Source of the DNA: Psychrobacter sp. HD31
GTDB taxonomy: Bacteria > Pseudomonadota > Gammaproteobacteria > Pseudomonadales > Moraxellaceae
Length of the DNA: 32,000 bases
NCBI RefSeq assembly: GCF_051097895.1
Contig: NZ_CP142525.1
Span: 630,001-662,000, forward strand
Reading direction: 5' to 3'
Numbering within the stretch: position 1 is the stretch's first letter; the number at the start of each line of letters is the position of its first letter. Both the position numbers and the translations under genes were made by a program. Shown piece by piece: positions 962 through 22,945 of the stretch. Under the pieces are notes generated by a model. It was not told the origin of the DNA, did not search any database, and saw nothing but the letters and a program-made list of their open reading frames with translations.

Positions 962-2155
962 CTAAAAAACTTGTGGTACATAAACTTCACCTACCATAAT
1001 ACGGCGGGCTGAACGGCTCATTGACACTTTTTTGGCTTGCCACTTTTTACCCTTAATGCCATCATCTACTTGTTCAGACTTGCCACCAACCTTTAACGTA
1101 CCAGAAGGATGCCCAAAGGTCACTTCACTAATTTCACTCCCGCCAGCTGCCTGATTAACCAATGTGCCTTGTGTGGTTGCGGCTGCAGCAATTGCCACCG
1201 CCGCTGTACCCATCATGGCATGGTGCAGTTGCCCCATACTCATGGCTCTCACCACTAAATCAATATCACTGGCTTTAACTGCCTTACCACTGGATGCTGT
1301 ATAGTCTTTTGGAGTGCTTACCCATGCAATTTTAGGGGTATGCTGACGAGTCTTTGCCTCCTCAACATCGCTAATCAAACCCATTTTAATAGCACCATAA
1401 GCACGTATTTTTTCTAGCTTAGCTAATATGGTTTCATCACTATTAATATCAGGTTGTAGCTCAGTGCCTGTAAAGCCCAAATCTTCTGCTTTCATAAATA
1501 TAGTTGGGATACCAGCATTGATAAATGTGGCTTCAAAGCTGCCAATATCCGGTACTTTAAAAGTATCTACCAAATTACCAGTGGGGAACATCTCGCCATC
1601 TACCGGATCAATAAACTCAATTTTAACCTCAGCTGCGGGGAAGGTAACACCATCCAACTCAAAATTGCCTGTTTCTTGTACTTGCCCATTGGTAATGGGG
1701 ACATGGGCAATAATTGTTTTGCTAATGTTTTGTTGCCAAATACGCACCTCACAAATGCCATTTTCTGGGACTTTATCGGCATCCACATAACCAAAATTAA
1801 TAGCACAAGCACCCACCGCAGCAGTTAAGTTACCGCAATTACCAGACCAATCAATCATTGGTTTGCCAATGTTAACTTGTCCAAATAAGTAATTAACATC
1901 ATGCTCAGGCACATCTGATTTAGATAAAATAACCGACTTTGAAGTACTCGAACTCCCATTGCCCAACCCATCAATCTGTTTGCCGTACGGGTCTGGACTG
2001 CCAATAACACGCAATAGAAGGTTATCACGTGCTTCACCCGCAGTTTGGCAAGGTTCTGGCAAGTCCTCTAGCTTAAAAAATGTGCCTTTTGATGTACCAC
2101 CACGCATATAAGTGGCTTTCACTGCAACTTGTGGCAAGTTAGATGAGTTCGTCAT
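962..2155 (-). CDS. prpF: 2-methylaconitate cis-trans isomerase PrpF (AcnD accessory protein)
   Basis: 397 aa. The N-terminus ...VAVKATYMRGGTSKGTFFKLEDLP... is the characteristic PrpF-family start. AAGGAA lies 6 nt upstream of the ATG. The gene is in the same orientation as the prp/acnD genes further right. Confidence 0.85.
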   Translation of the reverse strand: MTNSSNLPQVAVKATYMRGGTSKGTFFKLEDLPEPCQTAGEARDNLLLRVIGSPDPYGKQIDGLGNGSSSTSKSVILSKSDVPEHDVNYLFGQVNIGKPMIDWSGNCGNLTAAVGACAINFGYVDADKVPENGICEVRIWQQNISKTIIAHVPITNGQVQETGNFELDGVTFPAAEVKIEFIDPVDGEMFPTGNLVDTFKVPDIGSFEATFINAGIPTIFMKAEDLGFTGTELQPDINSDETILAKLEKIRAYGAIKMGLISDVEEAKTRQHTPKIAWVSTPKDYTASSGKAVKASDIDLVVRAMSMGQLHHAMMGTAAVAIAAAATTQGTLVNQAAGGSEISEVTFGHPSGTLKVGGKSEQVDDGIKGKKWQAKKVSMSRSARRIMVGEVYVPQVF

Positions 2156-2219
2156 AATCGATTCCTTTCGTTTATTTAAATGTTGTATACAGCGTATACC
2201 TAACTAATACGCAAAGTTA

Positions 2220-3419
2220 TTATAGCGTATCAGCAATTGCTTTAAATAAAGCAACGTGTTTTCTTTCTCCACCACGTTTACGGGTTTTAAAATGATGATT
2301 GGCTGATAAGGTAACAATAACTAAATTTTTATGGGGTTGAACATAAATATACTGATCATAAATGCCAGAACCAAAAAAGTCACCATCATCATGCACGGGT
2401 ATCCACCATTGAAATCCATAACCTTGCTCACGTGTGGCGTTATCTCGTTTACCTGGCATTAGGTGTGGTGCATCCGGTGTTGTAGACATTTTAACCCATT
2501 CAGATGGTATCAGTTGTTGACCATTTAATTTGCCTTGATGCAGGTATAGCAAACCAATTTTGGCATAATCACGCATGGTCATATTCAGTCCACCCAGTGC
2601 CATTTCCATGCCTGTTTCATCAATAATCCATTCACCGTGGTCTTGCATGCCTAAAGGCTCCCACAGTTTTTGCTGATAATATTCTGTTAGCCCCATACCT
2701 GTTACTTTTGTTAGTAGCATGCCTAAAACTTGGGTATCAATACTCACGTATTGATTGTAGGTACCCTGTGGCTTTTCATTTTTTAGGGTTAATGCAAAAT
2801 CTTCAAACGATTTACCAAAAGCAAAGGTTCTACCAAAACGATTAATATCGGAGTGAAAGTCTCCATAGTCTTCATTAAAGCCCACGCCAGAACTCATTTG
2901 TAAAAGATTTTTAATTTTTACATTATCGTATCCTGTGCCTTTAAACTGGGGTAGGTATTGAGTGATTGGCGCATCAAGTTCAAATAACCCATCATGATAG
3001 GCAATCCCTAAAAGGGCAGAAACAACCGATTTAGATAGGCTCCATCCAATGTGGGTGTCATCTGGTGTAAAGCCGAGTTTATATTCTTCTAATACCACTT
3101 TATCGTCTTTAATTATCATTATGCCTTCTAGGCGATTTTGCTCTAAAAACGCTTGGGTATTTATCTGTTCATTTTTAAAATTAAAGTGCGCGGGTAGGGT
3201 AAAGCTGGTATCGGCTTGTTCAATAACATAAGGTTGCGATGCAGGGGTTAAACGATTAACCGGATAATTTGCATCGGCATTTCTAAAATTATCGATAATG
3301 ACATCTTCATCAAAAAAATGGATGGCTTTATAGACTCGTTTAATTGTATTTAGGTTAAATAACGCTACCACAACCAACAAAGCAATAATCGCAAATAACA
3401 ATTTAATCAACTTTTTCAT
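2220..3419 (-). CDS. Membrane-anchored serine hydrolase (beta-lactamase/PBP-like fold)
   Basis: 399 aa. It has an N-terminal hydrophobic anchor (LLFAIIALLVVVALF) and an SxxK motif (GWSLSKSV), and its length is typical of class-C-like serine hydrolases. Its start lies 4 nt after the stop of the upstream LysE gene. Confidence 0.7.
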   Translation of the reverse strand: MKKLIKLLFAIIALLVVVALFNLNTIKRVYKAIHFFDEDVIIDNFRNADANYPVNRLTPASQPYVIEQADTSFTLPAHFNFKNEQINTQAFLEQNRLEGIMIIKDDKVVLEEYKLGFTPDDTHIGWSLSKSVVSALLGIAYHDGLFELDAPITQYLPQFKGTGYDNVKIKNLLQMSSGVGFNEDYGDFHSDINRFGRTFAFGKSFEDFALTLKNEKPQGTYNQYVSIDTQVLGMLLTKVTGMGLTEYYQQKLWEPLGMQDHGEWIIDETGMEMALGGLNMTMRDYAKIGLLYLHQGKLNGQQLIPSEWVKMSTTPDAPHLMPGKRDNATREQGYGFQWWIPVHDDGDFFGSGIYDQYIYVQPHKNLVIVTLSANHHFKTRKRGGERKHVALFKAIADTL

Positions 3420-3423
3420 ATCG

Positions 3424-4095
3424 CTACTTTTTATTACCTAAGTCTGCTAACGCCAATGAGCCAGACATGGCAACAAACACAATGCCAGAAAAAAAGTTAA
3501 GCACCTTGATACCTGTGTCGTTTAAAAATCTTGCTAACACTTTTTGACCCAGCACGTTGTAGGTATTCATGCAAAAAAATGACATAACTGCAAAAGTTGC
3601 CCCTAAAAACAACATGGTTAAAAGGTTGCTTTGCACGCTTTGCCCAGCGGTCATAAATTGTGGGAAGATAGCGGTAAAAAAGATAATGGCTTTTGGATTG
3701 GTGAGCGCTAGCATTAAGCCCTTTTTATAAAATGATAAATAGCTGTCATCCATTAATTCATCTTGCTCTTTAACTGCCTTTGGCTTGTTAGCTTGATGTT
3801 TATTGCCGTTAAACACAGATAACAGCATTTTACAACCAAGATAAAACAGTACCATTGCACCCAAAACCTTAACAATATTTAGCAAAATAAATGACTTAAC
3901 AATTAATGAGCCCAAACCAAATGCAGAGATAGTTGCTAATATTGCCAAACCAGATGAGTTACCTAATAGTAGGGTAGCCGTTTTTTTAAGACCATGCACC
4001 GCACCATAATTAATTGCCAAAAATACGGCAGGACCAGGGCTGATAATATAAAAAAAGGCGATTGATACAAATATTAGATATTGGTGTAAATCCAT
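3424..4095 (-). CDS. LysE/RhtB-family amino-acid exporter
   Basis: 223 aa with about six hydrophobic segments. The N-terminus (IFVSIAFFYIISPGPAVFLAINYG) has the family-typical PGP motif. Confidence 0.75.
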   Translation of the reverse strand: MDLHQYLIFVSIAFFYIISPGPAVFLAINYGAVHGLKKTATLLLGNSSGLAILATISAFGLGSLIVKSFILLNIVKVLGAMVLFYLGCKMLLSVFNGNKHQANKPKAVKEQDELMDDSYLSFYKKGLMLALTNPKAIIFFTAIFPQFMTAGQSVQSNLLTMLFLGATFAVMSFFCMNTYNVLGQKVLARFLNDTGIKVLNFFSGIVFVAMSGSLALADLGNKK

Positions 4096-4220
4096 AACAG
4101 CATCCTTGTTAAGCTTTAATTTTTAATGTATTTTTTACTATTTTTAAGCAACATATAACTGCCAAGATACACCAATTGAGACAATTACCCAAGCAAATTT
4201 TTGCATAAAGCTTAAGAGGC

Positions 4221-4496
4221 TTAGATACTTCTAACGATGTCTTTAACTAAACCAATTTTTTCTCTATATTGGTCATCCAATACATTCCAGATACTGTCTT
4301 GGTCTAGCACTCTAAAGTGTTGATTTGTATCTTGTAGATTATCATAGTCAGCAGCGTATTCTTGCGTATAGTAAACCTCTAGTGCTTTTCGATTCGCCTC
4401 TATGACTCGTAGCTCGTCACGAATGGCTTGTATTCTTAATAAATCTGCTTCACATTGATTTAATAAGTGTTCTTTTTCTGCTAGTTTGGTCATCAT
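4221..4496 (-). CDS. Small hypothetical protein (predicted helical/coiled-coil)
   Basis: A 91-aa ORF with protein-like, charged, heptad-like composition. I recognise no motif. It has the same orientation as the LysE/hydrolase/prpF run. Confidence 0.45.
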   Translation of the reverse strand: MMTKLAEKEHLLNQCEADLLRIQAIRDELRVIEANRKALEVYYTQEYAADYDNLQDTNQHFRVLDQDSIWNVLDDQYREKIGLVKDIVRSI

Positions 4497-4915
4497 TTTT
4501 TCCTATCATTTGCTATGTGTTTCTTGATACTCATAATAGCTTACCAACTTTTAGCTCTATTTTTTACAAGTATTTTTATTCTATTGCATAAAACTAACCG
4601 CTTGTGAATTCAGTAACGGTAAGAGACTAATGCAGTAATGAATTTTAGCGATTCATTTGTCTACACGACCTTGTTATCTATAAGATCTGTCTGATAGTCG
4701 CTTTTTATGAGTTTGGTTGTTTTTACGATGTTTTGATATTTTTTGGTCTATCAAAAAATATATGGCAATGATAAAATCTTTTAAAGATAGCCCAATATCA
4801 ACTCTCTTTTTTTAGTTGAGTTTAGGGTATTTTGTTTCAAAAGCACTTCATAGTTAGATAGTTAGCTTAGCCGCATAATAATTTGTTAAATCTCCTAAAC
4901 TAGCCCATGCTAACA

Positions 4916-4960
4916 ATTGAATTGAATAGATGTCGAAAATATTCAATACCTATATTGAAT
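4916..4960. promoter_or_regulatory. Cluster of ATTGAAT/ATTCAAT repeats upstream of the AhpD-like gene (candidate operator)
   Basis: ATTGAATA (4921-4928) and its exact inverse TATTCAAT (4940-4947) are 11 nt apart. Further direct copies lie at 4916-4922 and 4953-4960. The cluster is 43-87 nt upstream of the ATG at 5003. Confidence 0.25.
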
Positions 4961-5002
4961 CAAAGGCTATCATAACTCTAACAATTTTTAAGGAGATATG
5001 AT

Positions 5003-5464
5003 ATGGCTTTACGAGCAAACTATTTCGAACTAGCATCCAAGGCAATGCAAATTTTGATAAATCAGGAAAACTATTTGCATGAGCAATTTAGTTTGTCAGA
5101 AACAATAACAATCCCAATTTGGGAATTGGTTAAATTGAGAGTTTCTCAGATGAATCAATGTGCTTTCTGCATTGATATGCACAGCAAAGATGCGTTGAGT
5201 CAGGGTGAAACTCAGGAGCGTATCATTGGCTTAAGTGCATGGCGTGACATGCCTCTATACTCAGAGACAGAACTGGTAGCACTGGACTGGGCAGAGCATT
5301 TGACCTTAGGTAAGCCAGTAGATGATGAAAGCTATCATAAAGTGGTAAAAGCACTAGGTGAACAAGCGGTAGTGGATTTGACCATTGCAATTAGTGCTAT
5401 CAACAGCTGGAATCGAATTGCCAAAACTTTTACACCAGAGGTAGGTGGCTATAAACCACAATAA
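5003..5464 (+). CDS. Carboxymuconolactone decarboxylase / AhpD-like family protein
   Basis: 153 aa. It has the CxxC-type motif NQCAFCIDMHSKDA typical of the CMD/AhpD fold. AAGGAG at 4990-4995 lies 7 nt before the ATG. Confidence 0.75.
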   Translation: MALRANYFELASKAMQILINQENYLHEQFSLSETITIPIWELVKLRVSQMNQCAFCIDMHSKDALSQGETQERIIGLSAWRDMPLYSETELVALDWAEHLTLGKPVDDESYHKVVKALGEQAVVDLTIAISAINSWNRIAKTFTPEVGGYKPQ

Positions 5465-6221
5465 ATCATTTAAACAGACATTCGACTTTCAACTGTCTCA
5501 GCCATTGGGGCAGTTGTCTGCGTTTGTACAGGGAATATGGTCAGCCTCTGTACCTCAACCAGAGCCGATAATGAAGCCACTGTATTCTGATGCTGGTAGT
5601 GGCATTATTTTTAATCTCGTTGGGGATGTTGTGATTGGCAATGAAACGCTGCCAGAAGGTGTCATCATGCTTCCGATAAGTCGGAAGGCAGAGAATATTG
5701 TTCTGGCATCCGGAGCACAAATGTCAGGTATTCGCTTCTATCCAGCCTTTGGCTATGGCATCTTGGGACAGCACTACGATAAACCAACATTATTATTGCC
5801 CGAGCAAGACCAACTATATAACCTCTACCAGATTTATAATGAACTCCGGATGCAAAAGGATAACGAAAAGAGAATTGAAACTTTGCACCTGTGGGCAGAT
5901 AAAAATCTGGATTTTACCAAAGTAATTCCAGATTCTCTGGAAAAAGCACTTGAATGTATTGAGCAAGGTGAAGCACCGGGGCAGCTCAGTACAAATGTTG
6001 AATTGAGCCAACGGCAAATAGAGCGTATTTTTAAGCTCTGGCTAGGGATGACACCCAAACATTATCAGCGGATTTTAAGGATTAAAAAAACTATTTATTT
6101 TTTACGACTGCATAGAAATGCAAATTTGGCAGATGTTGCTCAACAATTTGGATTCAGTGACCAAGCTCATATGACACGTGAATTCCGCACGATTGCCTGT
6201 ATTACACCAAGGCAAGTATAG
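5445..6221 (+). CDS. AraC/XylS-family transcriptional regulator
   Basis: 258 aa. The C-terminal dual HTH region (LSQRQIERIFKLWLGMTPKHYQRILRI...VAQQFGFSDQAHMTREFR) is a classic AraC signature. The gene overlaps the upstream CMD gene by 20 nt. Confidence 0.8.
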   Translation: MAINHNKSFKQTFDFQLSQPLGQLSAFVQGIWSASVPQPEPIMKPLYSDAGSGIIFNLVGDVVIGNETLPEGVIMLPISRKAENIVLASGAQMSGIRFYPAFGYGILGQHYDKPTLLLPEQDQLYNLYQIYNELRMQKDNEKRIETLHLWADKNLDFTKVIPDSLEKALECIEQGEAPGQLSTNVELSQRQIERIFKLWLGMTPKHYQRILRIKKTIYFLRLHRNANLADVAQQFGFSDQAHMTREFRTIACITPRQV

Positions 6222-6441
6222 CGATTTATTTGTCTTCCAACGATAAGCGATTTGAAGCCAGCTTCATAAAACTTAGCTCATTTCCCAACCCATTTAATCA
6301 ATTTAGCTAATACAATCAGTCGGACAGTCAAAAGTGCTAAGTCTGTTGTGCAAAAAGTCACGCCCATTTTTCTTGCTATTACGGTCAGCGTTATATTCCG
6401 AGTACATAGGCAATTAATTTTAGGTGTTTTAGGAGAATTTT

Positions 6442-6738
6442 ATGTTTCGAGTTATCTATGAATGGCGTGTGCCAGTTGATAAAATGGATGAGTTTCAAAA
6501 CGTCTGGCGCTCGGCAACAGAATCCATTCATCATTCGGTTGAAGGTGCGCTTGGTAGTTTTATGCTACGCTCCTATGATACGCCTGAAAAGGTTCTAACC
6601 GTTGCTAAGTGGCACACTCATGAAGATTGGCAATCATTTTGGGGAAATCGTAACCCAGAAAAAATGCAGAAAATGCGTGAAATTGCTGAGCGTGTTTCGG
6701 TTGAAGCATTTTATGAAATAGAAGACAGAACTAAATAG
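6442..6738 (+). CDS. ABM (antibiotic biosynthesis monooxygenase, Dabb-fold)-like small protein
   Basis: 98 aa. The pattern (VIYEWRV...F...W...GSFMLRS...VLTVAKWHTHEDWQSFW) resembles the ABM domain. A TAGGAG SD precedes the ATG. Confidence 0.5.
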   Translation: MFRVIYEWRVPVDKMDEFQNVWRSATESIHHSVEGALGSFMLRSYDTPEKVLTVAKWHTHEDWQSFWGNRNPEKMQKMREIAERVSVEAFYEIEDRTK

Positions 6739-7106
6739 CGATTATCTCGTATAACAAACTGTTCAAGAGAGCTTCGCAATACCTGACATTTGTAGTATGC
6801 ATTACGTTCAGCATTGAAGGTTTATGTACTCAATATTATTATCAAACATAAAATAAACTAGATTTAACATAGTTTTCTCTTATATATTTTAAATTTTAAA
6901 ATCAATTAGTTATGCAGTAATTAGCATAACCGACCATTAATAGAAAATGATATGTATATTCTTGTACAACGTATTCATTATCCTAGAAATCATGGTGTTT
7001 AATTCGTTCTAAACATTCTTTTCAGTATGTGTTTTCGATAGAAGTGTATTTGTGATAACCGCTCAAATCCATACACCTAACAAGATAAATTAACTAAGTG
7101 AGTTGC

Positions 7107-7310
7107 TTAAAGTAATCTTTTCACCACCATGGCATTGGCTATTTTAGCAAAGGACTTTCTGACTAATTTAAGCTCTTTTTTCTCTAACAAGTCAGTTTGC
7201 GTTTTGTGGTCTTTTAAAAAGTCTTCAACCACATCTTTGCTAAACAAGCCGAGCACTTTACCGATGTCTTTTTCTGTCACTTCACCGATTTTACTAATTG
7301 TGTGGAATGT
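7107..7310 (-). pseudogene. Start-less 67-codon ORF abutting the helicase stop codon (gene remnant or unconventional small gene)
   Basis: My own minus-strand translation reads TFHTISKIGEVTEKDIGKVLGLFSKDVVEDFLKDHKTQTDLLEKKELKLVRKSFAKIANAMVVKRLL*. The frame opens right after the TAA at 7311-7313 and ends at the TAA at 7107-7109. There is no ATG before residue 61. The only candidate starts are ATT (7298) or GTG (7280), and neither has a good SD. Confidence 0.3.
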
Positions 7311-7315
7311 TTATA

Positions 7316-9073
7316 TTAATTAACAACCTCGATATCACACAATGAGCTCAAACCGCTGACTTTATCCTGACTTAAGGTGGGTACAGAAATAAATAAGCGA
7401 TTTCTAGCCCTACTAACACCAACGTAATTTATTCTATGTTCTTCGTTACTTAAGTCAGGGTTATATAAAAACTCAATATCTTCCTCTTTAGTTAAAACTA
7501 ATAAAACGTTATCGAACTCATCTCCTTTTGATTTATGAATAGTTTTATGCAAACTCAAATCATCAGGTATTGACACACAAAGCAATAAACTTTGAAAAGA
7601 GTTGTCTGCATAGAAAGTTTTAATTTTTCCAGGTCTAAAATTTTTAAGGTCAGAATTAATATTATTTCTTATAAATTCTGCGAACTCTAGAAGTGATGAA
7701 TCTTTATATTCATTGAACTTTTCTAGTAGAATAGAAATGTACTTTAGAGCTTTTTTCTTACCTTCCAGTTTGTCATTTTTATAATTCAACTGTTCTTCAA
7801 ATACTTTTATCGCATCTTTAAATTTATTTTCTTGTGCAAAGGCGATAGCTTTTATACAGGATGAAATCAACTTTCCTCTATCACCAGAATCTTTTAAAGA
7901 AAGTTTATCTAATAATTTACTATCAAGTCCTGAGTTACTTATTTCTGCTTTCATAGCATTTGAAGTGATGTTATTTCTTGATAAAGAATGGATAACTTCA
8001 TCTGGAAAATGTGTTTTACACTTTCTTAAAGCTACAGACATATCGCCAATTAAAATTTTTGGTTTTTCAATTGAATCATTACGGTGAGGTGTTTGTGTAA
8101 TATCTGTTCGGATTGAATTTAGTAGCTCAATAATTTCATTGCTACTCCTTCTATTTTGAGTCAGGGTGTATTCTTTTATGTTGGGAAGTGTAAATGATTC
8201 AAACTGTGTGTAGCTGGCTCCTTGAAACTCGTAAATTGACTGACAAGGGTCACCTATTACACCTGTGTGAATACCTGCTGAAGCAAGTGTTCTAAATATT
8301 TCTACTTGAATAGGGTTACTATCTTGAAACTCATCAATTACTAAATATGGAAACTTTGCTAATAACACATCAGATAAAAAAGGGTACTGCTTTAATAAAT
8401 GAAAGCTAAAAAACAGCAAGTCATCATGAGAAACTTTTCCTTGTTTCCAGTATTCTTGTTTATATTCAAGTAAATTAGCCTCCAAATGTCTTAAACAAGT
8501 TTTATTCAAGTATTGTCTTTTAGAATCAACCGTTGCAAATGCTTTAGAGTTGTTGACTATAATATCAGTATCATTAGTTGAACTATTAAAACTATAGGAA
8601 GTCGAATCAAGCCAGTTTATTAAGGCGCTTTTATTTTGTGGTAATTTGATAAGTTGATTATATGTAAAGGGATGCTTTAATTTGTTCTTATTAGGGTGAT
8701 TTTCTAACCAATTAATTATGTTCCGAAAACTCGTTTTAATATCGTCATGCCCGTTTACTTTAGCAAAATTTACATTGTATTGTTCTGCGATAAATGGCAG
8801 GTAAGGTTTAACAATGTGTTTGTATAAAAAGCTATGAATGGTAGATACTTCAACTTGTGTAGAAGATGTGCCTAGTCTTTTAAGTATTGTTTCTACAGCA
8901 GTATTGGTGTATGTAATACATGCAACTTTTCTATTTACTGATAATAAGTCAGAGTTATGTAAAATATTTTTAATATGATTGACCAACCAATAGGTTTTCC
9001 CTGCACCAGGTCCAGCAGAAACCTTGAAGTGGCTGTTAACCTCTGGTAAGTAATAATCTGAGTTAATATCCAT
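7316..9073 (-). CDS. gajB: UvrD/PcrA-type SF1 helicase, Gabija GajB-like
   Basis: Helicase motifs are present in order: AGPGAGKT (Walker A), CITYTNTA (Ia), LVIDEFQDSNP (II), GDPCQSIYEFQGA (III), LTQNRRS (IV), TIHKSKGDEFDNV (V) and YVGVSRARNRLFI (VI). The ATG at 9073 lies 2 nt after the upstream stop (TAAacATG), with GAGGAG 11 nt upstream. The ORF-track start at 9082 is a TTG. Confidence 0.75.
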   Translation of the reverse strand: MDINSDYYLPEVNSHFKVSAGPGAGKTYWLVNHIKNILHNSDLLSVNRKVACITYTNTAVETILKRLGTSSTQVEVSTIHSFLYKHIVKPYLPFIAEQYNVNFAKVNGHDDIKTSFRNIINWLENHPNKNKLKHPFTYNQLIKLPQNKSALINWLDSTSYSFNSSTNDTDIIVNNSKAFATVDSKRQYLNKTCLRHLEANLLEYKQEYWKQGKVSHDDLLFFSFHLLKQYPFLSDVLLAKFPYLVIDEFQDSNPIQVEIFRTLASAGIHTGVIGDPCQSIYEFQGASYTQFESFTLPNIKEYTLTQNRRSSNEIIELLNSIRTDITQTPHRNDSIEKPKILIGDMSVALRKCKTHFPDEVIHSLSRNNITSNAMKAEISNSGLDSKLLDKLSLKDSGDRGKLISSCIKAIAFAQENKFKDAIKVFEEQLNYKNDKLEGKKKALKYISILLEKFNEYKDSSLLEFAEFIRNNINSDLKNFRPGKIKTFYADNSFQSLLLCVSIPDDLSLHKTIHKSKGDEFDNVLLVLTKEEDIEFLYNPDLSNEEHRINYVGVSRARNRLFISVPTLSQDKVSGLSSLCDIEVVN

Positions 9074-9075
9074 GT

Positions 9076-11151
9076 TTAACAAAGCTCCTCAATCGCATCT
9101 TTGATGTATTGAGGAATAGAAATGTTAATGAATTCATCTGTTCCTTTTTTAGAGAAATTCTCAGCTAATACATAAGATAGTTCTAATGCATTTTCACCTT
9201 TACCAATAGAATTTAAATATCGTGATGCTATTATAGATTTTTTCTTATCATCATCATTTAACGTTGAGTTCTGATTAATAGACTCTATGATTCTTGTGTT
9301 CTCCTCACTATCACCTAATTTATTTAATAAGTCTTCTACGGTTGAAGTATTATCTTCATAGAGTGTCATTAATTCTTCTAAGTTGTTTTTGTTACTCATT
9401 GATTCGGTTAGAAATAATTGGCAAGAAGGGTTACACATTAGTAGTTCATACTCTAAAGTTTTACCATTACTTCTGTCAGAACTGAAAACAGTGATATTCT
9501 GATGAGAATCTTTAGGGTATTTATCAGAAAAAGGATTATTCTGGTATTCATATTTATTTAAGTCTTGTTGAAACTCGTATGGGTAACACTTTTTGAACTT
9601 ACCATTAGGTTTTTCTTTTCTCGTAGGGTCTCTATCTGTTATGCATACTATCTTTTTATGAATAGTATGTTCTTTTGTACTATCAAATAAATATAAGAAA
9701 TGTTCAAAATAACGACCGCCAACATTGATAACTGCAACGTGATTATCTTCTAAAGATTTGTCTATATACTTTCCTAAAACAGACATGAGTAGTTGTTCAG
9801 CAATACCTTCAACGAATAATACTTTCTGTGCAAATAACATGTCTGACTTTGTAGCATCTAAAAAACGTTGAACATATTTTTTATTTTTAGTTTCTGGAAA
9901 TACTTTTTTAGGATAGCCAACTTGGGTTTGACCATTATCATTATGCAGACAAATTATTTGGTCTAGTGATAGAGCCGAAGTAATGTGAGTTGAATGAGTG
10001 GTTACAAAAACTTGTCGAACTTTTTTATCACTTTTATTTTCATTTAAAAACTTTAGAAATTTATACTGCATTGCAGGGTGAAGGTGGGCTTCGGGCTCTT
10101 CGATAGCAAGGGTGTTAAATACTTTGGCATTGTTATCTAAATATTTAATATTCGCATTCACTTGCATTTTGGCTAGTAAAAGAGACATAAAAATTAAGTT
10201 ATTGTATCCAAGCCCATTATGCGTTGCAGGAATTGTTATACCTGACTCATACTCAACTATAAGCTTTAATACTGAGTACATTTCACTTTCAGCAATGCTT
10301 CCGGTAAAGCTTGGTTTTGCTTTATTAAACGAAGCACCCGTTTTAGTTGCATAAGAAAGAATTTCTTTTTTACCTTCTTTAATTCTTTTTGTTAGGTCTT
10401 CAATTAAAACATCAGCTTTTTGGGTGAACTGTTCTTTTTTGTTTTTAATTTCTTCAGCTTTTTGTTCAAATGTTTTGCTACCATCTTTTTTTATTTCATA
10501 ATCCATAAAGAAGTCAAAAACTTCTCTTAAAAGAGTGTTTTGACCTGATAGCATATCTCTTTCAACATCTCTTATAGCATCTAAAAATTGAAAATCAAAT
10601 TTTTGTAATGATTCAGAGTCAGCAGTTGCTTGGTTTGAAACGTCTCCGCCCCATATTTTATAAACATAAAACCTCAGAAAGTCCTGTTTAATAACTTTCC
10701 AAGCTTTATCAATAGTTTTTAATTTATCTTCAGCAGGTTCATCATTGCTTTCTGTAAATACAGATAATGCCTCAATATATGAATTATGTTTTTTTTCAGG
10801 AAGAAAAAATTCATATGTCAGTAAAGCTTCATATGAGTTCTCAAGTTTAGTAAGCCAGTTAGCTATTGTAACTAAATCATCAGGGGTTTCTTCTTCACCT
10901 TTTGCAATCGTAACTGAAATAGTAATTTTCGGTGGGCTGCTTTTTAATTCGTCTAGTGAGATGTTCTTGTGAAAATCATCGATACTTAGTCGTTTTGATT
11001 TAGTCGTATCAATTACTAATGATAAAGCTTGAATCAGGTTAGTTTTACCAGCATTGTTATGACCGATAATTACATTCATGCCATCATTAAAAATGATTTC
11101 TTGGTCTTTGAAGTTTCGATAGTTACTGATTTTTATTTTTGATAAATACAT
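9076..11151 (-). CDS. gajA: OLD-family nuclease (N-terminal ABC-type ATPase plus C-terminal TOPRIM), Gabija GajA-like
   Basis: 691 aa. The N-terminus MYLSKIKISNYRNF... is typical of OLD/AAA_15-type ATPases. It has Walker A GHNNAGKT (aa 30-37), Walker B TLAIEEPEAHLHP (aa 347-359) and an H-loop VFVTTHSTH (aa 381-389). TOPRIM acidic residues are in VLFVEGIAEQ (E448), INVGGRYF and VCITDRDP (D506, D508). It is tightly coupled to the helicase gene downstream. Confidence 0.75.
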   Translation of the reverse strand: MYLSKIKISNYRNFKDQEIIFNDGMNVIIGHNNAGKTNLIQALSLVIDTTKSKRLSIDDFHKNISLDELKSSPPKITISVTIAKGEEETPDDLVTIANWLTKLENSYEALLTYEFFLPEKKHNSYIEALSVFTESNDEPAEDKLKTIDKAWKVIKQDFLRFYVYKIWGGDVSNQATADSESLQKFDFQFLDAIRDVERDMLSGQNTLLREVFDFFMDYEIKKDGSKTFEQKAEEIKNKKEQFTQKADVLIEDLTKRIKEGKKEILSYATKTGASFNKAKPSFTGSIAESEMYSVLKLIVEYESGITIPATHNGLGYNNLIFMSLLLAKMQVNANIKYLDNNAKVFNTLAIEEPEAHLHPAMQYKFLKFLNENKSDKKVRQVFVTTHSTHITSALSLDQIICLHNDNGQTQVGYPKKVFPETKNKKYVQRFLDATKSDMLFAQKVLFVEGIAEQLLMSVLGKYIDKSLEDNHVAVINVGGRYFEHFLYLFDSTKEHTIHKKIVCITDRDPTRKEKPNGKFKKCYPYEFQQDLNKYEYQNNPFSDKYPKDSHQNITVFSSDRSNGKTLEYELLMCNPSCQLFLTESMSNKNNLEELMTLYEDNTSTVEDLLNKLGDSEENTRIIESINQNSTLNDDDKKKSIIASRYLNSIGKGENALELSYVLAENFSKKGTDEFINISIPQYIKDAIEELC

Positions 11152-11486
11152 AGCAATCTTAATTTCACGTCAAAAAGTATTTACTTTAATAGCAATACAA
11201 AAGTTAATTAATCACTGAGTTCTATTTTATATAGTGTATTAAAACACCTTATCATATCTACTTTAGCATAGCATGATGTAATTTTGGCAAACTAAACACC
11301 GCGTGTTTCTTAGCCCTGATAGTAGTTGAAATGTATTTTATGTACAGAGGGCTTAGCGGGCTAAGACTGGACGACTTATCGCGCTAGCAGGAAGACGGCT
11401 AGGCTTGAAAGCCAACTTGTTATCGGTGAATGCGACATTGAAGCAGATATCAAGTTTCCACCTCATTTAATCCATCCAATATAACA

Positions 11487-11519
11487 TAAAAAAAGACAAA
11501 CACCATTAAGCATTTGCCT
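11487..11519 (-). terminator. Candidate Rho-independent terminator after acnD
   Basis: On the minus-strand RNA, AGGCAAA pairs with UUUGUCU (7 bp including one G-U; + strand arms 11494-11500 and 11513-11519). The loop is 12 nt and a U7 run follows (+ strand A run 11487-11493). It lies about 55 nt past the acnD stop. Confidence 0.4.
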
Positions 11520-11573
11520 TTCATACTATTACTATATAATCATAAATTTAAACACACTCAACAAAGTATTTTA

Positions 11574-14249
11574 TCAAGCCGACTTCTCAATAAACTCTTT
11601 TGCAAAGCGTTGCAACATACCACCAGCATTATACATCAGCACTTCATCAGCCGTATCAAGGCGACAAATAACCTTTGCTTTATCCACTGTACCGTCTTGA
11701 CGATGGATAACCAAAGTCATTTCACCTCTTGGTGATACCTCACCTTCCACGTCATAAACTTCGGTACCGTCTAAATTTAAGCTATTGCGGTTTGTGCCGG
11801 CTGCAAATTGTAATGGCAACGCACCCATGCCCACAAGGTTGGTACGGTGAATACGCTCAAAATCTTCTGCCACGATGGCTTCTACACCAGCCAGACGCAC
11901 ACCTTTTGCTGCCCAGTCACGGCTAGAGCCTTGACCATAGCCATCACCAGCGATGATGATAAGCGGTTGTTTACGCTCCATATAGGTTTCGATGGCTTCC
12001 CACATACGCATCACGTTGCCTTCTGGTTCAACACGAGCCAGCGAGCCTTGCACGACGTTGCCTTGCTCATCACGCACCATTTCATTAAGCAATTTAGGGT
12101 TGGCAAAGGTGGCACGTTGGGCGGTTAAGTGGTCACCACGGTGGGTGGCATACGAATTATAATCAACTTCTGGCAAGCCCATTTTATCAAGGTAGGCACC
12201 AGCAGCACTTTCTTTTAAAATCGCATTGGATGGCGACAAGTGGTCGGTAGTGATGTTATCACCCAGTACGGCTAGCGGTCGCATGCCTTTTAGCTGATTT
12301 TTGGCTGCCATTGCCCCTTCCCAATACGGCGGACGGCGGATATAAGTACTCATTTCACGCCAGTTATATAGAGGTTCTGCCTTGGCAAGGTCTTTTTTCG
12401 CTTCATCGAACATCGGGATGTAAACGGCATTGAATTGCTCTGGTTTAACCGCAGATTTAACAATGGCATCAATTTCAGCATCATCTGGCCAGATGTCTTT
12501 TAGGTACACATCATTGCCATCTTGGTCTTGCCCTAATGGGTCTTTTTCGATGTCAAATTTGATATTACCAGTAATTGCATAGGCAATCACCAATGGCGGT
12601 GAGGCAAGAAACGCCTGCTTGGCATACGGGTGAATACGACCGTCAAAGTTACGGTTGCCTGATAAAACAGCAGCTGTATATAAGTCACGGTCGATGATTT
12701 CTTGTTGAATCTCTGGTCGCAACGCACCCGACATACCGTTACAGGTTGTACAGGCAAATGCCACCACATCAAAGCCAAGTTTCTGTAGTTCTGGCAACAG
12801 TCCTGCTTCTTCAAGATACATTTTTACCGTTTTAGAACCTGGGGCAAGCGACGATTTCACCCAAGGTTGGCGTACCAGACCTTTGGCGTTGGCATTGCGA
12901 GCCATTAAGCCGGCAGAAATGATATTGCGTGGGTTTGAGGTATTAGTACAGCTGGTAATGGCAGCGATAATCACCGCACCATCTGGCATGGTACCGTCTT
13001 CTGGATTGGCAGGTGCTTGAGGTATGGCTTCTCCCTCAGCGTGTGCAATGCCTTTTTTGACCAAGTCTGCCGTACCAACACGAGCATGCGGACGGCTAGG
13101 ACCTGCAATATTACGAGTGACACTGGATAAGTCAAAGGTTAACACTCGCTCATACTCGACCGCTTTCATGCCATCTGCCCACAAACCGACTTCTTTGGCA
13201 TATTGCTCCACCAATTTAACTTGGTCGTCACTACGCCCAGTCAAACGTAAATAGTCGATGGTCTGTTCGTCAATATAGAACATCACCGCCGTTGCTCCAT
13301 ACTCTGGGGTCATATTAGAGATAGAAGCACGGTCACCAACGGATAGGGTTTTTACGCCTTCGCCAAAGCATTCCACATAAGCCGAAACCACGCCTTCTTC
13401 ACGCAAAAACTCGGTAATCGCTAATACCAAATCGGTGCCAGTAATGCCTGCCTGTAATTCGCCAGTAATCTCAAGACCAACGATGTCTGGCAGACGCATA
13501 TATGATGGATTGCCCAGCATGACGCTTTCGGCTTCCAAACCGCCGACACCCACCGAAATCACCCCCAAGGCATCAACCATCGGCGTATGACTGTCCGTGC
13601 CTACTAGCGTATCAGGAAAGGCGATTTTATGCCCAGCGGTATCGGCACACACCTGTACAACTGGTGACATCTTCTCAAGATTAATCTGGTGCATGATACC
13701 GTTACCCGGTGGCACGACATTCACATTATCAAAGGCTTCTTGACACCAATTAATAAAGTGAAAGCGGTCATCGTTTCGGCGGTCTTCTACGGCACGGTTA
13801 TTTTCAAAGGCATTTTCTTCATAGCCTGGATGTTCTACCGCTAGTGAATGGTCAACGATACACTGAGTCGGCACAATTGGGTTTACTTTTGAGGGGTCAC
13901 CACCTGCCAAAGCAATGGCATCACGCAAGCCTGCCAAATCAACAAAAGCTGTTTGCCCCAAGATATCATGACAGACCACACGGGCAGGAAACCACGGAAA
14001 ATCAACGTCTTGCTTACGGAAAATATGCTGTTCTAAGGCGGTTTTTAAATCTTCAGGTGGGCAACGACGCACTAAATTTTCTGCCAATACTTTTGATGAA
14101 AATGGCAGTTTGTCATAGCTACCCGCTTCAATTTCTTCAACCGCTTTTTTGGTATCAAAGTAATGCACATCGGTATTGGGCAATGCGGTAATATAGTCAG
14201 CATTCATTTCGACAGGTAGGGTTTGGGTGGTTTTAAATATCTGGGTCAT
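11574..14249 (-). CDS. acnD: Aconitase-family Fe/S-dependent 2-methylisocitrate dehydratase AcnD
   Basis: 891 aa with aconitase-family length and cluster-ligand context (ITSCTNTSNP, FACTTCNGMSG). The N-terminal ...DKLPFSSKVLAENLVRRC is typical of the AcnD branch. It lies in the prp locus, and prpF is present in the window. Confidence 0.85.
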   Translation of the reverse strand: MTQIFKTTQTLPVEMNADYITALPNTDVHYFDTKKAVEEIEAGSYDKLPFSSKVLAENLVRRCPPEDLKTALEQHIFRKQDVDFPWFPARVVCHDILGQTAFVDLAGLRDAIALAGGDPSKVNPIVPTQCIVDHSLAVEHPGYEENAFENNRAVEDRRNDDRFHFINWCQEAFDNVNVVPPGNGIMHQINLEKMSPVVQVCADTAGHKIAFPDTLVGTDSHTPMVDALGVISVGVGGLEAESVMLGNPSYMRLPDIVGLEITGELQAGITGTDLVLAITEFLREEGVVSAYVECFGEGVKTLSVGDRASISNMTPEYGATAVMFYIDEQTIDYLRLTGRSDDQVKLVEQYAKEVGLWADGMKAVEYERVLTFDLSSVTRNIAGPSRPHARVGTADLVKKGIAHAEGEAIPQAPANPEDGTMPDGAVIIAAITSCTNTSNPRNIISAGLMARNANAKGLVRQPWVKSSLAPGSKTVKMYLEEAGLLPELQKLGFDVVAFACTTCNGMSGALRPEIQQEIIDRDLYTAAVLSGNRNFDGRIHPYAKQAFLASPPLVIAYAITGNIKFDIEKDPLGQDQDGNDVYLKDIWPDDAEIDAIVKSAVKPEQFNAVYIPMFDEAKKDLAKAEPLYNWREMSTYIRRPPYWEGAMAAKNQLKGMRPLAVLGDNITTDHLSPSNAILKESAAGAYLDKMGLPEVDYNSYATHRGDHLTAQRATFANPKLLNEMVRDEQGNVVQGSLARVEPEGNVMRMWEAIETYMERKQPLIIIAGDGYGQGSSRDWAAKGVRLAGVEAIVAEDFERIHRTNLVGMGALPLQFAAGTNRNSLNLDGTEVYDVEGEVSPRGEMTLVIHRQDGTVDKAKVICRLDTADEVLMYNAGGMLQRFAKEFIEKSA

Positions 14250-14611: not shown

Positions 14612-16057
14612 TTATCGAACCCACAAGCTCATAAACTCATTCACAGGCGTTGCTGAGAATGTATCATGGTCGTTGCACAAATCGAGCAACTGCTGGGATA
14701 CTTTCTCCGACAACTTGCCACGGATACTGTATTCAAACTTATCTTTTAGTACTGGGATACCTTCCTCACGGCGACGACGATGACCAATTGGGTAATCCAC
14801 AGTTACTTTTTCGGTGCTTGTCCCATCTTTAAAGAACACCTGCACACTATTGCCAATCGCACGTTTATCAGGGTCAAAGTACTCTTTGGTAAAGGTCTTG
14901 TTCTCTGCCACGCTCATCATGTCACGCAACTGGTCAATACGAGGGTCACTCGCCACGCTATCTTCATAGTCGGCAGCAGTTAAGCGACCAAAAATAAGCG
15001 GTACTGCTACCATATATTGCAAGCAATGGTCACGGTCAGCAGGGTTGGCTAAAGGTCCAGACTTATCAATGATGCGGTAGCCAGCCTCTTGGGTTTCCAG
15101 CTCAATCCGCTCAATGTCGTCCAAACGGTCTTTCACCTCATTGTGCAATGCCATGGCACACTCAACGGCTGTCTGCGCATGAAACTCGGCAGGGAAGGAA
15201 ATCTTAAACAACACATTTTCCATCACATAACTGCCATAATCTCGGGTAAACTCAAATGGCTTACCGCCAAACAACACATCATAGTAGCCCCAGTTTTTTG
15301 CGGTTAATGCAGATGGATAGCCCATCTCACCGGTTTGAGCAATCAATGCCAAACGTACCGCACGACTGGTAGCATCACCTGCCGCCCAACTCTTACGAGA
15401 GCCAGTATTGGGTGCATGGCGATAGGTACGTAACGCACCACCATCAATCCACGCATTCGACACCGCATTGATGGTTTCTTCACGGCTTAGCCCCAGTAGC
15501 TTACTGACCACTGCGGTTGACGCAATTCGTACCAGTAGCACATGGTCAAGACCCACTTGGTTAAAGCTATTTTCTAACGCAATCACACCTTGAATCTCAT
15601 GAGCCATGATGGAGGCTGTCAATACTTCCTTCATGGTCAGTGGTGCTTTGCCTTTGGCGATATTTCTACGGCTAACATAGTCGGCAACTGCCAAAATACC
15701 GCCTAAATTATCTGAGGGGTGTCCCCATTCAGCTGCCAGCCAAGTATCATTAAAGTCTAACCAACGAATCAAGGCTCCAATATTAAATGCCGCCATCACA
15801 GGGTCAAGCTCATAAGACGTACCCGGTACACGTGCACCGCCAGCCATACTTGCTTCAGGCACTACAGGACCTAACATCTTCACACAAGCAGGGTAGTCCA
15901 ACGCCTGCATCGCACAGCCCAAACTATCCATCACACAATATCGAGCCGTGGTATACGCCTCTTCACTGCTGATTTGATAATCATGAACATAGTCCGTTAT
16001 CTTTTGTAAAACATCGTCAAACTCTGGTCTTTCCGTGGTTTTAATGCCAATAGACAT
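14612..16057 (-). CDS. prpD: 2-methylcitrate dehydratase PrpD
   Basis: MmgE/PrpD-family sequence throughout (e.g. [30 protein letters not shown]). I place the start at the ATG at 16057 (MSIGIKTT...) because AGGAG at 16066-16070 lies 8 nt upstream. This gives 481 aa, close to E. coli PrpD, rather than the 500-aa ORF-track start at 16114. Confidence 0.9.
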
Positions 16058-16368
16058 GGTTACAACTCCTAACAGGTCAAGCAAATAATGCAGTCCATTT
16101 TGGTAACAATACATCTCTGCTCAATGGTTTTATGAATGCAGTCAAACTGCGAGGAAAACAGTCTTTCGACCGTTGATTGACAAATGTTCGATTGGTTACT
16201 TGTCAGTAAATCTATCAAACGAAGTGTCATTGCCTGAGACTCTCATCATCATAAGAGTGCCAGTATCCCTCATGGCTACATCCAAATAAAACACAATTTG
16301 ACTTTTACAGTCGCCATCATGTTAGGCGTGGCTAATGGGCATCTTGTCTGTGGCTTTTGCCACTGTCT

Positions 16369-16396
16369 TTATATAAAGTTATATAACTTTATATAA
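16369..16396. repeat. Perfect 28-bp AT-rich palindrome in the prpC-prpD spacer (candidate operator)
   Basis: TTATATAAAGTTATATAACTTTATATAA equals its own reverse complement (checked base by base). It lies about 310 nt upstream of the prpD start and downstream of the prpC terminator hairpin. Confidence 0.6.
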
Positions 16397-16503
16397 TTAA
16401 AATCCCTTAATATATATAACTTAAGCACCTTAATTAATATTTATAATATCTAAATTGTGATAATTCTGTATAGATATTCTTATATCAGTAGCAGTGTTAT
16501 CAT

Positions 16504-16551
16504 CAAAAAAAGAGCCAAAACGAGCGGGGAAGGAGGAAACCGCCCGTCTCG
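16504..16551 (-). terminator. Candidate Rho-independent terminator after prpC
   Basis: The minus-strand RNA CGAGaCGGG...CCCGCUCG forms a 4+4 bp GC-rich stem with one bulged A, followed by UUUUGGCUCUUUUUUU (+ strand A-rich run 16504-16520). It lies about 125 nt past the prpC stop. Confidence 0.5.
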
Positions 16552-16675
16552 GCAAGAAGGTAAGGTCAATCAGTTGACCTTAAAAACTTTTTAACGTTTA
16601 AAAATTTATGTTGTGCCTGCGACTCAATAAATTTTCTCGATTCATCCCACAGTACAGTAAGGAAAAACATAAGTA

Positions 16676-17836
16676 TTATTTGCGGTCACTCATAGGTACA
16701 AAAGCTTGGTCGTCAGGACCCGTATAGTTAGCACTTGGGCGAATGATTTTACCATCAGCACGCTGTTCTAATACATGAGCTGCCCAACCTGTGGTACGAG
16801 AGATAACAAACAATGGGGTAAACATGGCTGTCGGCACACCAAGTTTTTGATAACTAACCGCTGAGAACCAATCAAGATTTGGGAACATCTTTTTGTTATC
16901 CCACATCACGCTTTCTAAACGTTCTGCAATGTCAAACAGCTTCATATCGCCAGACTCTTTTGATAAATCACGAGCCACTTCTTTAATCACTACATTTCGT
17001 GGGTCAGAGATGGTATAAACTGGATGACCAAAACCAATCACAATTTCCTTTTTAGCCAAACGCGCTAAAATGTCCGCTTCGGCCTCATCGGCATTGCGAT
17101 AGCGTGACTGGATGTCGTATGCCACTTCGTTAGCACCACCGTGTTTAGGTCCTTTTAACGCGCCAATAGAACCAGAAATCGCTGAATACATATCCGAGCC
17201 CGTACCTGTAATCACACGAGAAGTAAAGGTTGACGCATTGAACTCATGCTCTGCATAAAGAATAAGCGAGATGTGCATCGCTTTCACATGTGATTCGCTT
17301 GGACGTTCACCATGAAGTAGATGTAGGAAATGACCACCAACGCTATCCTCTTCACTGTCTAATTCAATAGCTTTACCATTGTGGCTAAAATGATACCAAT
17401 AAAGCAGCATACTACCTAGGCTGGCTATCAGTTTATCGGCAATATCACGAGCCTCAGAAGTTGGGTGACTTTCACGCTCAGGCAAGGTACATCCCATTGC
17501 CGATACACCTGTACGCATTACATCCATTGGATGAGCATTGGCAGGTAGGCTCTCTAATACTGCCAATACATTAACAGGCAAGTTACGCATGGTCTGTAAC
17601 TTAGCTTTATATGCTGTTAGTTCATGTTGATTTGGCAAGTGACCGTGAATAAGCAAATGAGCCACTTCTTCAAACTCACATTCCTTTGCTAGGTCTAAAA
17701 TGTCATAACCACGGTAGCTTAAATCATTACCAGATTTCCCAACGGTACAAAGTGCTGTATTACCTGCTGCCACACCTGATAAGGCAACTGATTTTTTTGG
17801 TTTAAATGCGGGTTTCTTTTCAGTTTCTGTAGACAT
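16676..17836 (-). CDS. prpC: 2-methylcitrate synthase
   Basis: 386 aa of the citrate-synthase family ([25 protein letters not shown]), with the short type-II length typical of PrpC. It sits between prpB and prpD, and AAGGA precedes the ATG. Confidence 0.9.
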
Positions 17837-21467: not shown

Positions 21468-21643
21468 AACAAGTATTCCTTAAAATAACCACAAAAATAA
21501 TGAATTGTATAAAAATAATTTATATAAAACCTATAAAATAGAAAATTTAGAAAAAGTATTATAATGATTTAGCATAACTTAGCAATTGTATTTACGATAC
21601 TCTTAAGTAGCTATATTCAATCGCTTACTAAAGAACCAATTAA

Positions 21644-22335: not shown

Positions 22336-22360
22336 GCACATTTAAATAGGTCTTAATAAA

Positions 22361-22894: not shown

Positions 22895-22945
22895 CTTGCT
22901 TTTCAAGCTAGCAAAGCTGGGGCTTTTGCCCAGCACATTGTTATG

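Follow-up and report, generated by a model that had tools for sequence, protein, structure and literature searches.

A long-form Gabija gene pair, probably of horizontal origin, between acnD and prpF in Psychrobacter sp. HD31

The gene pair

Two adjacent genes, gajA and gajB, lie between acnD and prpF, both genes of propionate metabolism, in the DNA analysed here, a 32,000-nucleotide stretch of Psychrobacter sp. HD31 (contig NZ_CP142525.1, positions 630,001 to 662,000) that is called the window below. They very probably constitute an intact, functional-looking Gabija system of the long form, acquired horizontally by the chromosome as a bare two-gene cassette that entered the variable acnD-prpF gap of the methylcitrate (prp) locus. 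Gabija is a very common defence family and is diverse in sequence. The two products are 100% identical to Psychrobacter sp. HD31 proteins encoded on a 2.17-Mb contig; the source annotation names GajA no more precisely than "AAA family ATPase / ATP-dependent nuclease", and GajB no more precisely than "ATP-dependent helicase". The original prediction, made by reading the nucleotide sequence and its translations, had called them GajA and GajB of Gabija and had placed them inside a metabolic locus. The position between acnD and prpF agrees with this, and the Gabija assignment is borne out by end-to-end PADLOC matches, by alignment of the active site and by the fold of GajA. The positions of the open reading frames (ORFs) and every motif that it listed were also found at the residues given, in both proteins.

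The gajA and gajB ORFs, of ~2.1 and 1.8 kb, are both uninterrupted in DNA of 31% GC. Two long open ORFs in AT-rich DNA, together with full-length profile matches (E = 1e-296 and 1e-211), cannot be ascribed to chance. The junction of the two genes reads GAGCTTTGTTAAACATGG, that is TAA-ac-ATG, as had been noted, and the ATG start is 2 nt past the gajA stop. gajB may start either at TTG 9082 (588 aa), which gives a 7-nt overlap with gajA, or at ATG 9073 (585 aa). The latter is the more likely start; it is the one used in the NCBI annotation (P0272), and GAGGAG is located ~11 nt upstream of it. The GC content is 30.6% in gajA and 31.0% in gajB, with GC at third codon positions (GC3) of 0.22-0.24, compared with 47.4% in acnD, 47.0% in prpD, 43.2% in prpF and 42-47% in the prp genes overall, so the pair is indeed more AT-rich than its prp flanks.

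GajA

GajA matched the PADLOC-DB 2.0 GajA model PDLC00069 over its entire length (E = 2.6e-296, 983 bits; residues 1-691 on profile positions 1-684 of 687), and Pfam assigned it the domains AAA_15 (E = 1e-40), AAA_21 and OLD-like_TOPRIM (E = 6.6e-13). It is composed of an ABC-type ATPase with an inserted helical dimerisation domain (~205-295), a TOPRIM domain and a C-terminal helical domain (~566-690), and the region 566-690 is all-helical in the AlphaFold2 (AF2) model (pLDDT 87.3, pTM 0.80). The ATPase motifs are Walker A GHNNAGKT at 30-37 (K36), the signature-like NGLGYNN at 312-318, LAIEEPEAHLHP at 348-359 with the Walker B and catalytic residues E351-E352, and TTHS at 384-387, which contains H386 of the H-loop. 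The TOPRIM motifs are FVEG at 446-449 (E448) and ITDRD at 504-508 (D506, D508), along with E452 and G478/G479. K36, E351/E352 and H386 are invariant across the family in an alignment of 44 sequences; so are E448, E452, D506, D508, T565 and E567 in the 44 homologues, whose identity ranges from 30 to 76%.

As the prototype we used a Bacillus cereus plasmid copy, which is annotated as gajA of 578 aa and a helicase of 494 aa. hhalign aligned the family profile with this GajA at 99.5% probability and paired E448 with E379, VGGRYF with VGGTYF (G409), and D506/D508 with D432/D434. Active-site residues including E379, G409, D432 and D434 of B. cereus GajA were named by Antine et al. (PMC10781630). In an alignment with the C-terminal region of BpOLD, FVEGIAE of the window protein corresponds to FVEGDAE (E400, E404), with E452 on E404, and ITDRDP corresponds to LTDLDP (D455, D457). 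The metal ligands of BpOLD are E400, E404, D455, D457, T506 and E508 (Schiltz et al. 2019, PMC6755086). T565-x-E567 is likely to be the counterpart of T506 and E508, being matched to them by pattern and spacing alone and lying outside any significant alignment. The profiles thus place the ATPase within the OLD family, and the acidic residues of the TOPRIM domain align with known catalytic ones.

In a single-sequence search of PDB sequences, B. cereus GajA was matched weakly (E = 2e-14). The 44-sequence family profile gave E = 3e-25 for GajA, slightly ahead of the class 1 Thermus OLD (9e-22). The best PDB matches of the AF2 model were the GajA chains 8u7i, 8x5i and 8sm3 (E = 1e-18 to 1e-20; target TM 0.58-0.62), followed by the retron Eco8 OLD and the class 1 Thermus OLD. 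The pair resembles Gabija of B. cereus VD045 (PDB 8SM3, 8U7I, 8J4T, 8JQB) in its two adjacent or overlapping genes, in the domain order of GajA, in an SF1A UvrD-like GajB with all motifs, in the aligned catalytic Glu, Gly and DxD, and in the top fold match of GajA.

Other OLD proteins were also compared. The class 2 proteins BpOLD and XccOLD (PDB 6NK8, 6NJV) have the aligned EGxAE and TDxDP motifs, the TxE pair of their helical domain has a likely counterpart in T565-x-E567, and their genes are likewise in tandem with a UvrD-like helicase gene, but sequence similarity to them is low beyond the TOPRIM core. Class 1 OLD (P2 Old and Thermus scotoductus OLD, 6P74), retron Eco8 and AriA/AriB of PARIS have the OLD ABC-ATPase and TOPRIM chemistry in common with GajA, detectable by both sequence and fold. 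Class 1 was rejected because it is a solitary gene, whereas here a helicase gene is directly adjacent and the pairing is conserved. Class 3 OLD needs an adjacent reverse transcriptase and an msr/msd non-coding RNA. This class (retron Eco8-type) was rejected because the scanned ORFs of the window, all but one of those of at least 100 aa not inside a longer annotated gene, yielded no reverse transcriptase domain, and because Rfam gave nothing at the gathering threshold in the whole window or at E <= 1 in 6700-11600; the Eco8 effector equivalog scored 49.9 bits against a cut-off of 250. PARIS was rejected since the ATPase and TOPRIM, which are split between AriA and AriB, are fused here.

GajB

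GajB matched the PADLOC GajB model PDLC00119 (E = 1.3e-211, 702 bits; residues 4-582 on profile positions 4-558 of 565) and has the Pfam domains UvrD-helicase and UvrD_C. Gabija models of PADLOC therefore match both proteins, and all the domain families that the original prediction had implied (AAA_15/AAA_21, OLD-like_TOPRIM, UvrD-helicase and UvrD_C) were found. The full SF1 motif set I-VI is present: AGPGAGKT (23-30), VIDEFQD (248-254), GDPCQSIY (277-284), QNRRS (309-313), KSKGDEFD (517-524) and VGVSRAR (554-560). The AF2 model (pLDDT 88.8) adopts the UvrD/PcrA/Rep fold, in which domain 1B (~95-215) is enlarged.

The SF1A fold and motifs are common to GajB and the housekeeping helicases UvrD, Rep and PcrA, but GajB is ~130 aa shorter, is always beside an OLD nuclease gene and is found on mobile DNA. 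The NCBIfam equivalogs of UvrD, Rep and PcrA gave 91-109 bits with GajB against cut-offs of 911-1144, about ten-fold below, and the NCBIfam ortholog models of PcrA, Rep, UvrD and RecB gave 85-109 bits against cut-offs of ~700-1140. Scores so far under the cut-offs indicate that GajB is not a housekeeping ortholog, and assignment to housekeeping UvrD was rejected.

Length of the two proteins

The prototype proteins are 578 aa (GajA) and 494 aa (GajB) long, both in the PDB and in the B. cereus plasmid copy, as the original prediction had stated. Its estimate of ~100 aa of excess in each protein is close to the values measured, +113 aa and +91/94 aa. Its map of the extra sequence was right for GajB, in which ~80 additional aa of domain 1B separate motif Ia from motif II, and wrong for GajA. 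The surplus of GajA amounts to ~64 aa before Walker B and ~69 aa before the TOPRIM Glu, and is scattered instead of forming one block. The biggest addition is a helical hairpin at ~119-161 in the AF2 model, and smaller ones are within the dimerisation domain and before Walker B. What had been taken for a charged insert at 215-300 is the normal helical OLD dimerisation domain, to which the helices at 207-270 belong; this domain is common to all OLD proteins, prototype GajA included (PMC10781630). The supposed tail of ~120 aa is really an extension of ~39 aa, since 183 aa follow the DxD in the window GajA and 144 aa in B. cereus GajA.

The further suggestion of a divergent subtype was not upheld. 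The long form has its own full-length PADLOC models (687 positions for GajA and 565 for GajB), the PADLOC GajA profiles extend from 464 to 752 positions, so that 691 aa falls within the catalogued range, and there are well over 100 long-form clusters (90% identity) of the same length. Judged by these profiles, the pair is a member of an already catalogued, large long-form Gabija lineage (680-715 aa / 560-590 aa) and is no new subtype.

Relatives of the pair

In a protein search with GajA, the best 120 of 5,050 matches at E <= 1e-10 (clusters at 90% identity) were 66-100% identical to the query and 679-713 aa long. The best 120 GajB clusters were 51-100% identical and mostly 551-597 aa; a few of 520-536 aa are probably truncated. 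Among the matches listed, the named sources were mostly Flavobacteriales or other Bacteroidota (Aureibaculum, Dokdonia, Psychroserpens, Cellulophaga, Elizabethkingia and Labilibaculum), with Aliarcobacter also present, and the nearest relatives, from Flavobacteriales and other Bacteroidota, were 76% (GajA) and 67% (GajB) identical. The long-form relatives in Bacteroidota and other taxa (GajA 66-76% identical, 685-713 aa; GajB 55-67% identical, 562-592 aa) differ from the window pair in that its host belongs to another phylum, Pseudomonadota. An exhaustive search of 1.84 billion representatives yielded 372 GajA clusters at E <= 1e-30, whose lengths are continuous from ~570 to 760 aa.

Homologues of GajA and GajB were found on common contigs. 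In the loci of six relatives (Aureibaculum, four of Elizabethkingia, and Aliarcobacter) and in plasmid pSIT1 of Psychrobacter sp. SIT, gajA is followed by an overlapping gene for a UvrD-like protein of 562-585 aa; the contig of a seventh relative is short and ends within the helicase gene. No conserved third gene was found in the six loci and pSIT1. Gabija of Aureibaculum algae (CP040749), of an integrative and conjugative element (ICE) of Elizabethkingia anophelis and of Aliarcobacter lanthieri belongs to the same lineage (PDLC00069/PDLC00119) and is likewise a two-gene unit with a stop/start overlap. The flanks of the relatives are unrelated and contain ICE genes, IS110, restriction-modification (RM) systems, a HEPN-Toprim gene and other defence-type neighbours. 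Related DNA was found on plasmids of Persicobacter, the Bacillus cereus group and Psychrobacter sp. SIT, and two IMG/VR viral contigs carry full-length relatives of 43-46% identity.

Gabija of pSIT1 (NZ_CP121681) is from the same genus and falls in the same PADLOC clusters. Its GajA (707 aa) is 53% identical to the window GajA and has a further 20-aa insertion in the region of the 119-161 hairpin, and its GajB (585 aa) is 47% identical and has the same variant of domain 1B. The system is plasmid-borne, adjoining a type I RM system and a serine recombinase. This pair has diverged too far for the window pair to derive directly from it. The presence of the lineage on a mobilizable Psychrobacter plasmid provides a plausible plasmid route into the genus. 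pSIT1 (locus L088, 5002-8873) is a mobilizable plasmid on which blaCARB-16 and IS982 are also neighbours of the pair, in addition to the type I RM system and the serine recombinase.

Window GajB has the domain 1B variant of the 585-589 aa forms, but the GajB partner of the nearest GajA relatives is 562 aa long. This variant (GajB aa ~120-200) is common to the window, pSIT1 and 589-aa Bacteroidota forms and is absent from the 562-aa GajB beside the closest GajAs (76%). The mismatch suggests domain-level shuffling within the lineage.

Genomic setting and insertion site

The features around the pair are listed in Table 1. The acnD-prpF gap of the window is 9.4 kb (2156-11573). We compared it with 80 acnD loci from other genomes, 18 Psychrobacter species included. 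The gap is 0.17-3 kb in the 18 other Psychrobacter species, and in non-Psychrobacter loci with prpF downstream it is mostly 20-250 bp, reaching ~0.8 kb in a few. Neither gajAB nor the other gap genes were found in any of the 80 loci. The GC content of 31% against 42-47% in the prp genes, the nearest relatives in Bacteroidota and the absence from 80 loci establish a foreign origin of the pair. On sequence grounds the donor is low-GC and Bacteroidota-like.

Table 1. Coordinates of the Gabija genes and of the surrounding features in the window
Feature	Coordinates	Strand	Description	Basis
gajA	9076..11151	-	691 aa class 2 OLD-family nuclease	PADLOC PDLC00069, Pfam, motifs, hhalign, AF2 model
gajB	7316..9082 (TTG) or 7316..9073 (ATG)	-	UvrD/PcrA/Rep-like SF1A helicase, 588/585 aa	PADLOC PDLC00119, Pfam, motifs, AF2
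Low-GC segment	6739..11490		Low-GC (~31%) foreign segment, Gabija cassette and flanks	Composition, gap size compared with 80 other genomes
Leader	11152..11490	-	Non-coding leader from acnD hairpin to gajA start (~340 bp), presumed gajAB promoter region	
Hairpin	11491..11522	-	Terminator-like hairpin and T-run just downstream of acnD	Terminator scan, sequence reading
57-aa ORF	7107..7280	-	C-terminal remnant of T4 Rnl2-like RNA ligase	Pfam PF18043 T4_Rnl2_C
prpB	17972-18862	-		
prpC	16676-17836	-		
prpD	14612-16114	-		
acnD	11574-14249	-		
ABM gene	6442-6738	+		
AraC gene	5445-6221	+		
CMD gene	5003-5464	+		
LysE gene	3424-4095	-		
Beta-lactamase-family gene	2220-3419	-		
prpF	962-2155	-		

Similarity to the relatives ends at the gajA start and at the gajB stop, so that the two genes only are in common. 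The cassette flanks showed no DNA similarity to other Psychrobacter acnD-prpF regions or to the flanks of relatives. On the upstream side, the native prpBCD-acnD transcription unit ends at the hairpin downstream of acnD, ahead of the foreign DNA. The leader between this hairpin and gajA has no notable ORF and no similarity to the upstream DNA of relatives or to other Psychrobacter loci, and a GC-richer patch in it (11320-11470) folds like shuffled sequence (z = -1.1). On the downstream side, the 57-aa ORF scored 34.2 bits with PF18043, above the cut-off of 27 (E = 3.3e-8), and covers positions 34-81 of the 82 in that profile. Its frame opens only after the gajB stop, and the N-terminal nucleotidyltransferase part is missing. 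As the rest of this Rnl2-like gene is gone, the cassette edge cuts an earlier or co-transferred gene, which marks the downstream boundary. The remnant had no phage match, and its sole relative in a set of 5.8 billion proteins was itself.

The original prediction had noted that no integrase, transposase or tRNA accompanies the pair. This agrees with our scan of the window, in which no tRNA was detected and none of the ORFs covered (the same set as for the reverse transcriptase) had an integrase or transposase domain. A repeat search of 2000-12000 revealed neither a target-site duplication nor terminal inverted repeats at the cassette; the matches that it gave were short and such as AT-rich DNA yields by chance. 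A DNA search of a phage collection and E. coli genomes gave no match. Exact-sequence look-ups of GajA and AcnD returned no record, and hence no sister strain without the island for comparison. Nor did PADLOC match any other gap gene or unannotated ORF, so that the gap is not a multi-system defence island.

Empty acnD-prpF gaps in Psychrobacter are ~170-200 bp (loci L001-L018 compared). The occupied ones carry a toxin-antitoxin pair, either YefM-YoeB or ParD-like/ParE-like, or else different cargo of up to 3 kb (for example L008, 12613-13611, and L003, 12613-13429). Since toxin-antitoxin or other cargo is found in the gaps of other Psychrobacter, the site looks like a hotspot, small and variable, within the genus. 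Less probably, selfish or defence cargo may land in this gap throughout Psychrobacter without the help of an integrase.

Proposed mechanism and alternative explanations

GajA and GajB of B. cereus assemble into a 4:4 complex. Its GajA-GajA interfaces and its GajA-GajB interfaces are both essential, and DNA is cleaved at the TOPRIM site (PMC10781630). By analogy, GajA of the window would oligomerise via its ATPase and dimerisation domains and bind GajB. Its TOPRIM site would nick or cleave DNA by two-metal catalysis with E448, E452, D506, D508 and probably T565 and E567, and the ABC ATPase site (K36, E351/E352, H386) would serve as a nucleotide-binding regulator. GajB would provide UvrD-like 3'-5' translocase and (d)NTPase activity at DNA ends. 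Such a complex, with its nuclease and helicase activities, would be expressed in Psychrobacter and would protect the cell from phages. A role in defence has been shown experimentally for other Gabija members (PMC10781630, PMC12407980).

Two models of Gabija activation have been published, relief of nucleotide inhibition and attack on RecBCD-free linear ends (PMC12407980). If the former, which is the in-vitro model of B. cereus, applies here, nucleotide depletion in phage replication would release the activity. If the latter, the in-vivo model of Pseudomonas aeruginosa PA14, applies, injected linear DNA ends unoccupied by RecBCD would be the target. The window proteins keep all residues required by either model.

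Several points weigh against reading the pair as a working Gabija system of the known kind. The published activation models disagree with each other (PMC12407980). Identity to the B. cereus proteins over aligned columns is low, ~24% for GajA and ~22% for GajB. None of the records found describes a characterised system from this cluster of sequences, the tested systems of E. coli ECOR94, P. aeruginosa PA14 and Lactobacillus not being assigned to clusters. By phmmer against the PDB, GajB is closer to UvrD/PcrA (E = 1e-19) than to B. cereus GajB (E = 5e-13), and in Foldseek searches with its model UvrD, PcrA and Rep lead (E ~1e-23, query TM score (TMq) 0.55), with B. cereus GajB ranking 37th (E = 6e-15, TMq 0.39). 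The 1B region of the window GajB, unlike that of B. cereus GajB, is of full size. The partnership of the window GajB with GajA may therefore differ in mode. The fold ranking also means that this GajB has preserved the ancestral UvrD architecture more fully than its compact counterpart in B. cereus. Finally, as regards expression, a scan of the leader found no match to a sigma-70-like promoter on the minus strand, and the codon usage is very unlike that of the host. The literature yielded no paper on Gabija in Psychrobacter and nothing relevant in descriptions of GajA clades.

These differences raise the question of whether the PDLC00069/PDLC00119 lineage is a mechanistically distinct Gabija branch, related to Gabija yet distinct in structure and function, with a stoichiometry, trigger or target differing enough from the B. 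cereus prototype for subtype status. We consider this unlikely. Judged from the models, such a branch would be defined by the near-complete UvrD-type 1B/2B of GajB, which makes UvrD, PcrA and Rep rank over B. cereus GajB, by the extra ATPase hairpin of GajA (~119-161) and by the longer C-terminal helical domain of GajA, with its ~39 more residues after the DxD. The B. cereus prototype does fall in other PADLOC clusters (PDLC00081/PDLC00122), and identity to it is only 22-24%. High sequence diversity of Gabija is already known, however, and GajA lengths show no break at which to separate a subtype, neither among the homologues nor among the PADLOC profiles. The defining residues and the overlapping two-gene architecture are unchanged, and no extra conserved gene has joined them. 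If the long-form lineage is such a branch, the geometry of its complex, its trigger or its sensitivity to phage inhibitors, e.g. Gad1, may differ from those of the only system with a solved structure.

It is still less probable that the pair is an intact but silent or decaying passenger, that is, a recent low-GC arrival that is poorly expressed in Psychrobacter and confers no defence at present. The extreme composition relative to the host (GC3 0.22-0.24) and the lack of a sigma-70-like promoter match on the coding strand upstream would fit such a passenger, and the truncated Rnl2_C remnant next to it shows that decay or rearrangement has occurred locally. In the two genes themselves, however, 3.8 kb of ORFs has stayed open in AT-rich DNA, where stops arise easily, and all the family-invariant catalytic and motif residues are kept. 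This favours either ongoing purifying selection or a very recent arrival. A housekeeping or repair nuclease-helicase pair tied to the metabolic locus is extremely improbable, for although a metabolic operon region surrounds the pair, neither an integrase or transposase nor a tRNA is near it, and a repair role for class 2 OLDs was first speculated by Schiltz et al. 2019 (PMC6755086), the pair is missing at the same locus in 80/80 other genomes, 18 Psychrobacter among them, its composition is foreign, its relatives reside in ICEs, plasmids, RM clusters and two viral contigs, the UvrD/Rep/PcrA ortholog scores are ~ten-fold under their cut-offs, and defence by other Gabija members is established by experiment.

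Reading the pair as a horizontally acquired long-form Gabija system has consequences mainly for annotation, in that the two genes of the source genome can safely take the names GajA and GajB. The cassette is also a clean case of a cross-phylum move of defence genes, from a Bacteroidota-like donor to Psychrobacter, without a recognisable mobility gene. Its landing in a gap that has toxin-antitoxin pairs (YefM-YoeB or ParD-ParE) in other Psychrobacter species points to a small genus-level hotspot of accessory genes. The long-form lineage is abundant and no record of a structurally characterised member was found, so a representative of it would be a reasonable target for comparative work; the UvrD-like completeness of GajB in this lineage is mildly notable.

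Other observations in the window

The rest of the gap (2220-6738) also holds a 91-aa DUF4298-like ORF in a spacer of 31% GC (4096-5002), and the CMD-AraC-ABM trio lies on the strand opposite to the other gap genes. The prp locus encodes both routes of 2-methylcitrate dehydration, PrpD and AcnD/PrpF (14612-17836, 962-2155), and prpD separates prpC from acnD, an order that differs from other Psychrobacter. Identity of PrpC is only ~52% to PrpC of other Psychrobacter, as against 69-76% to PrpC of some other lineages, for example Marinospirillum, Stenotrophomonas, Achromobacter, Bordetella and Acinetobacter. Since PrpC is nearer to these lineages than to Psychrobacter, the prp locus appears mosaic.

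A very AT-rich stretch (28-31% GC) is found at 21500-24050. It contains a plus-strand ORF at 22006-22335, encoding a Gly/Ser-rich protein of 109 aa, followed by another at 22361-22894, also on the plus strand, encoding 177 aa with an N-terminal hydrophobic segment. Neither had a Pfam or PADLOC match; the two could be an orphan toxin fragment and its immunity gene, or other foreign DNA.

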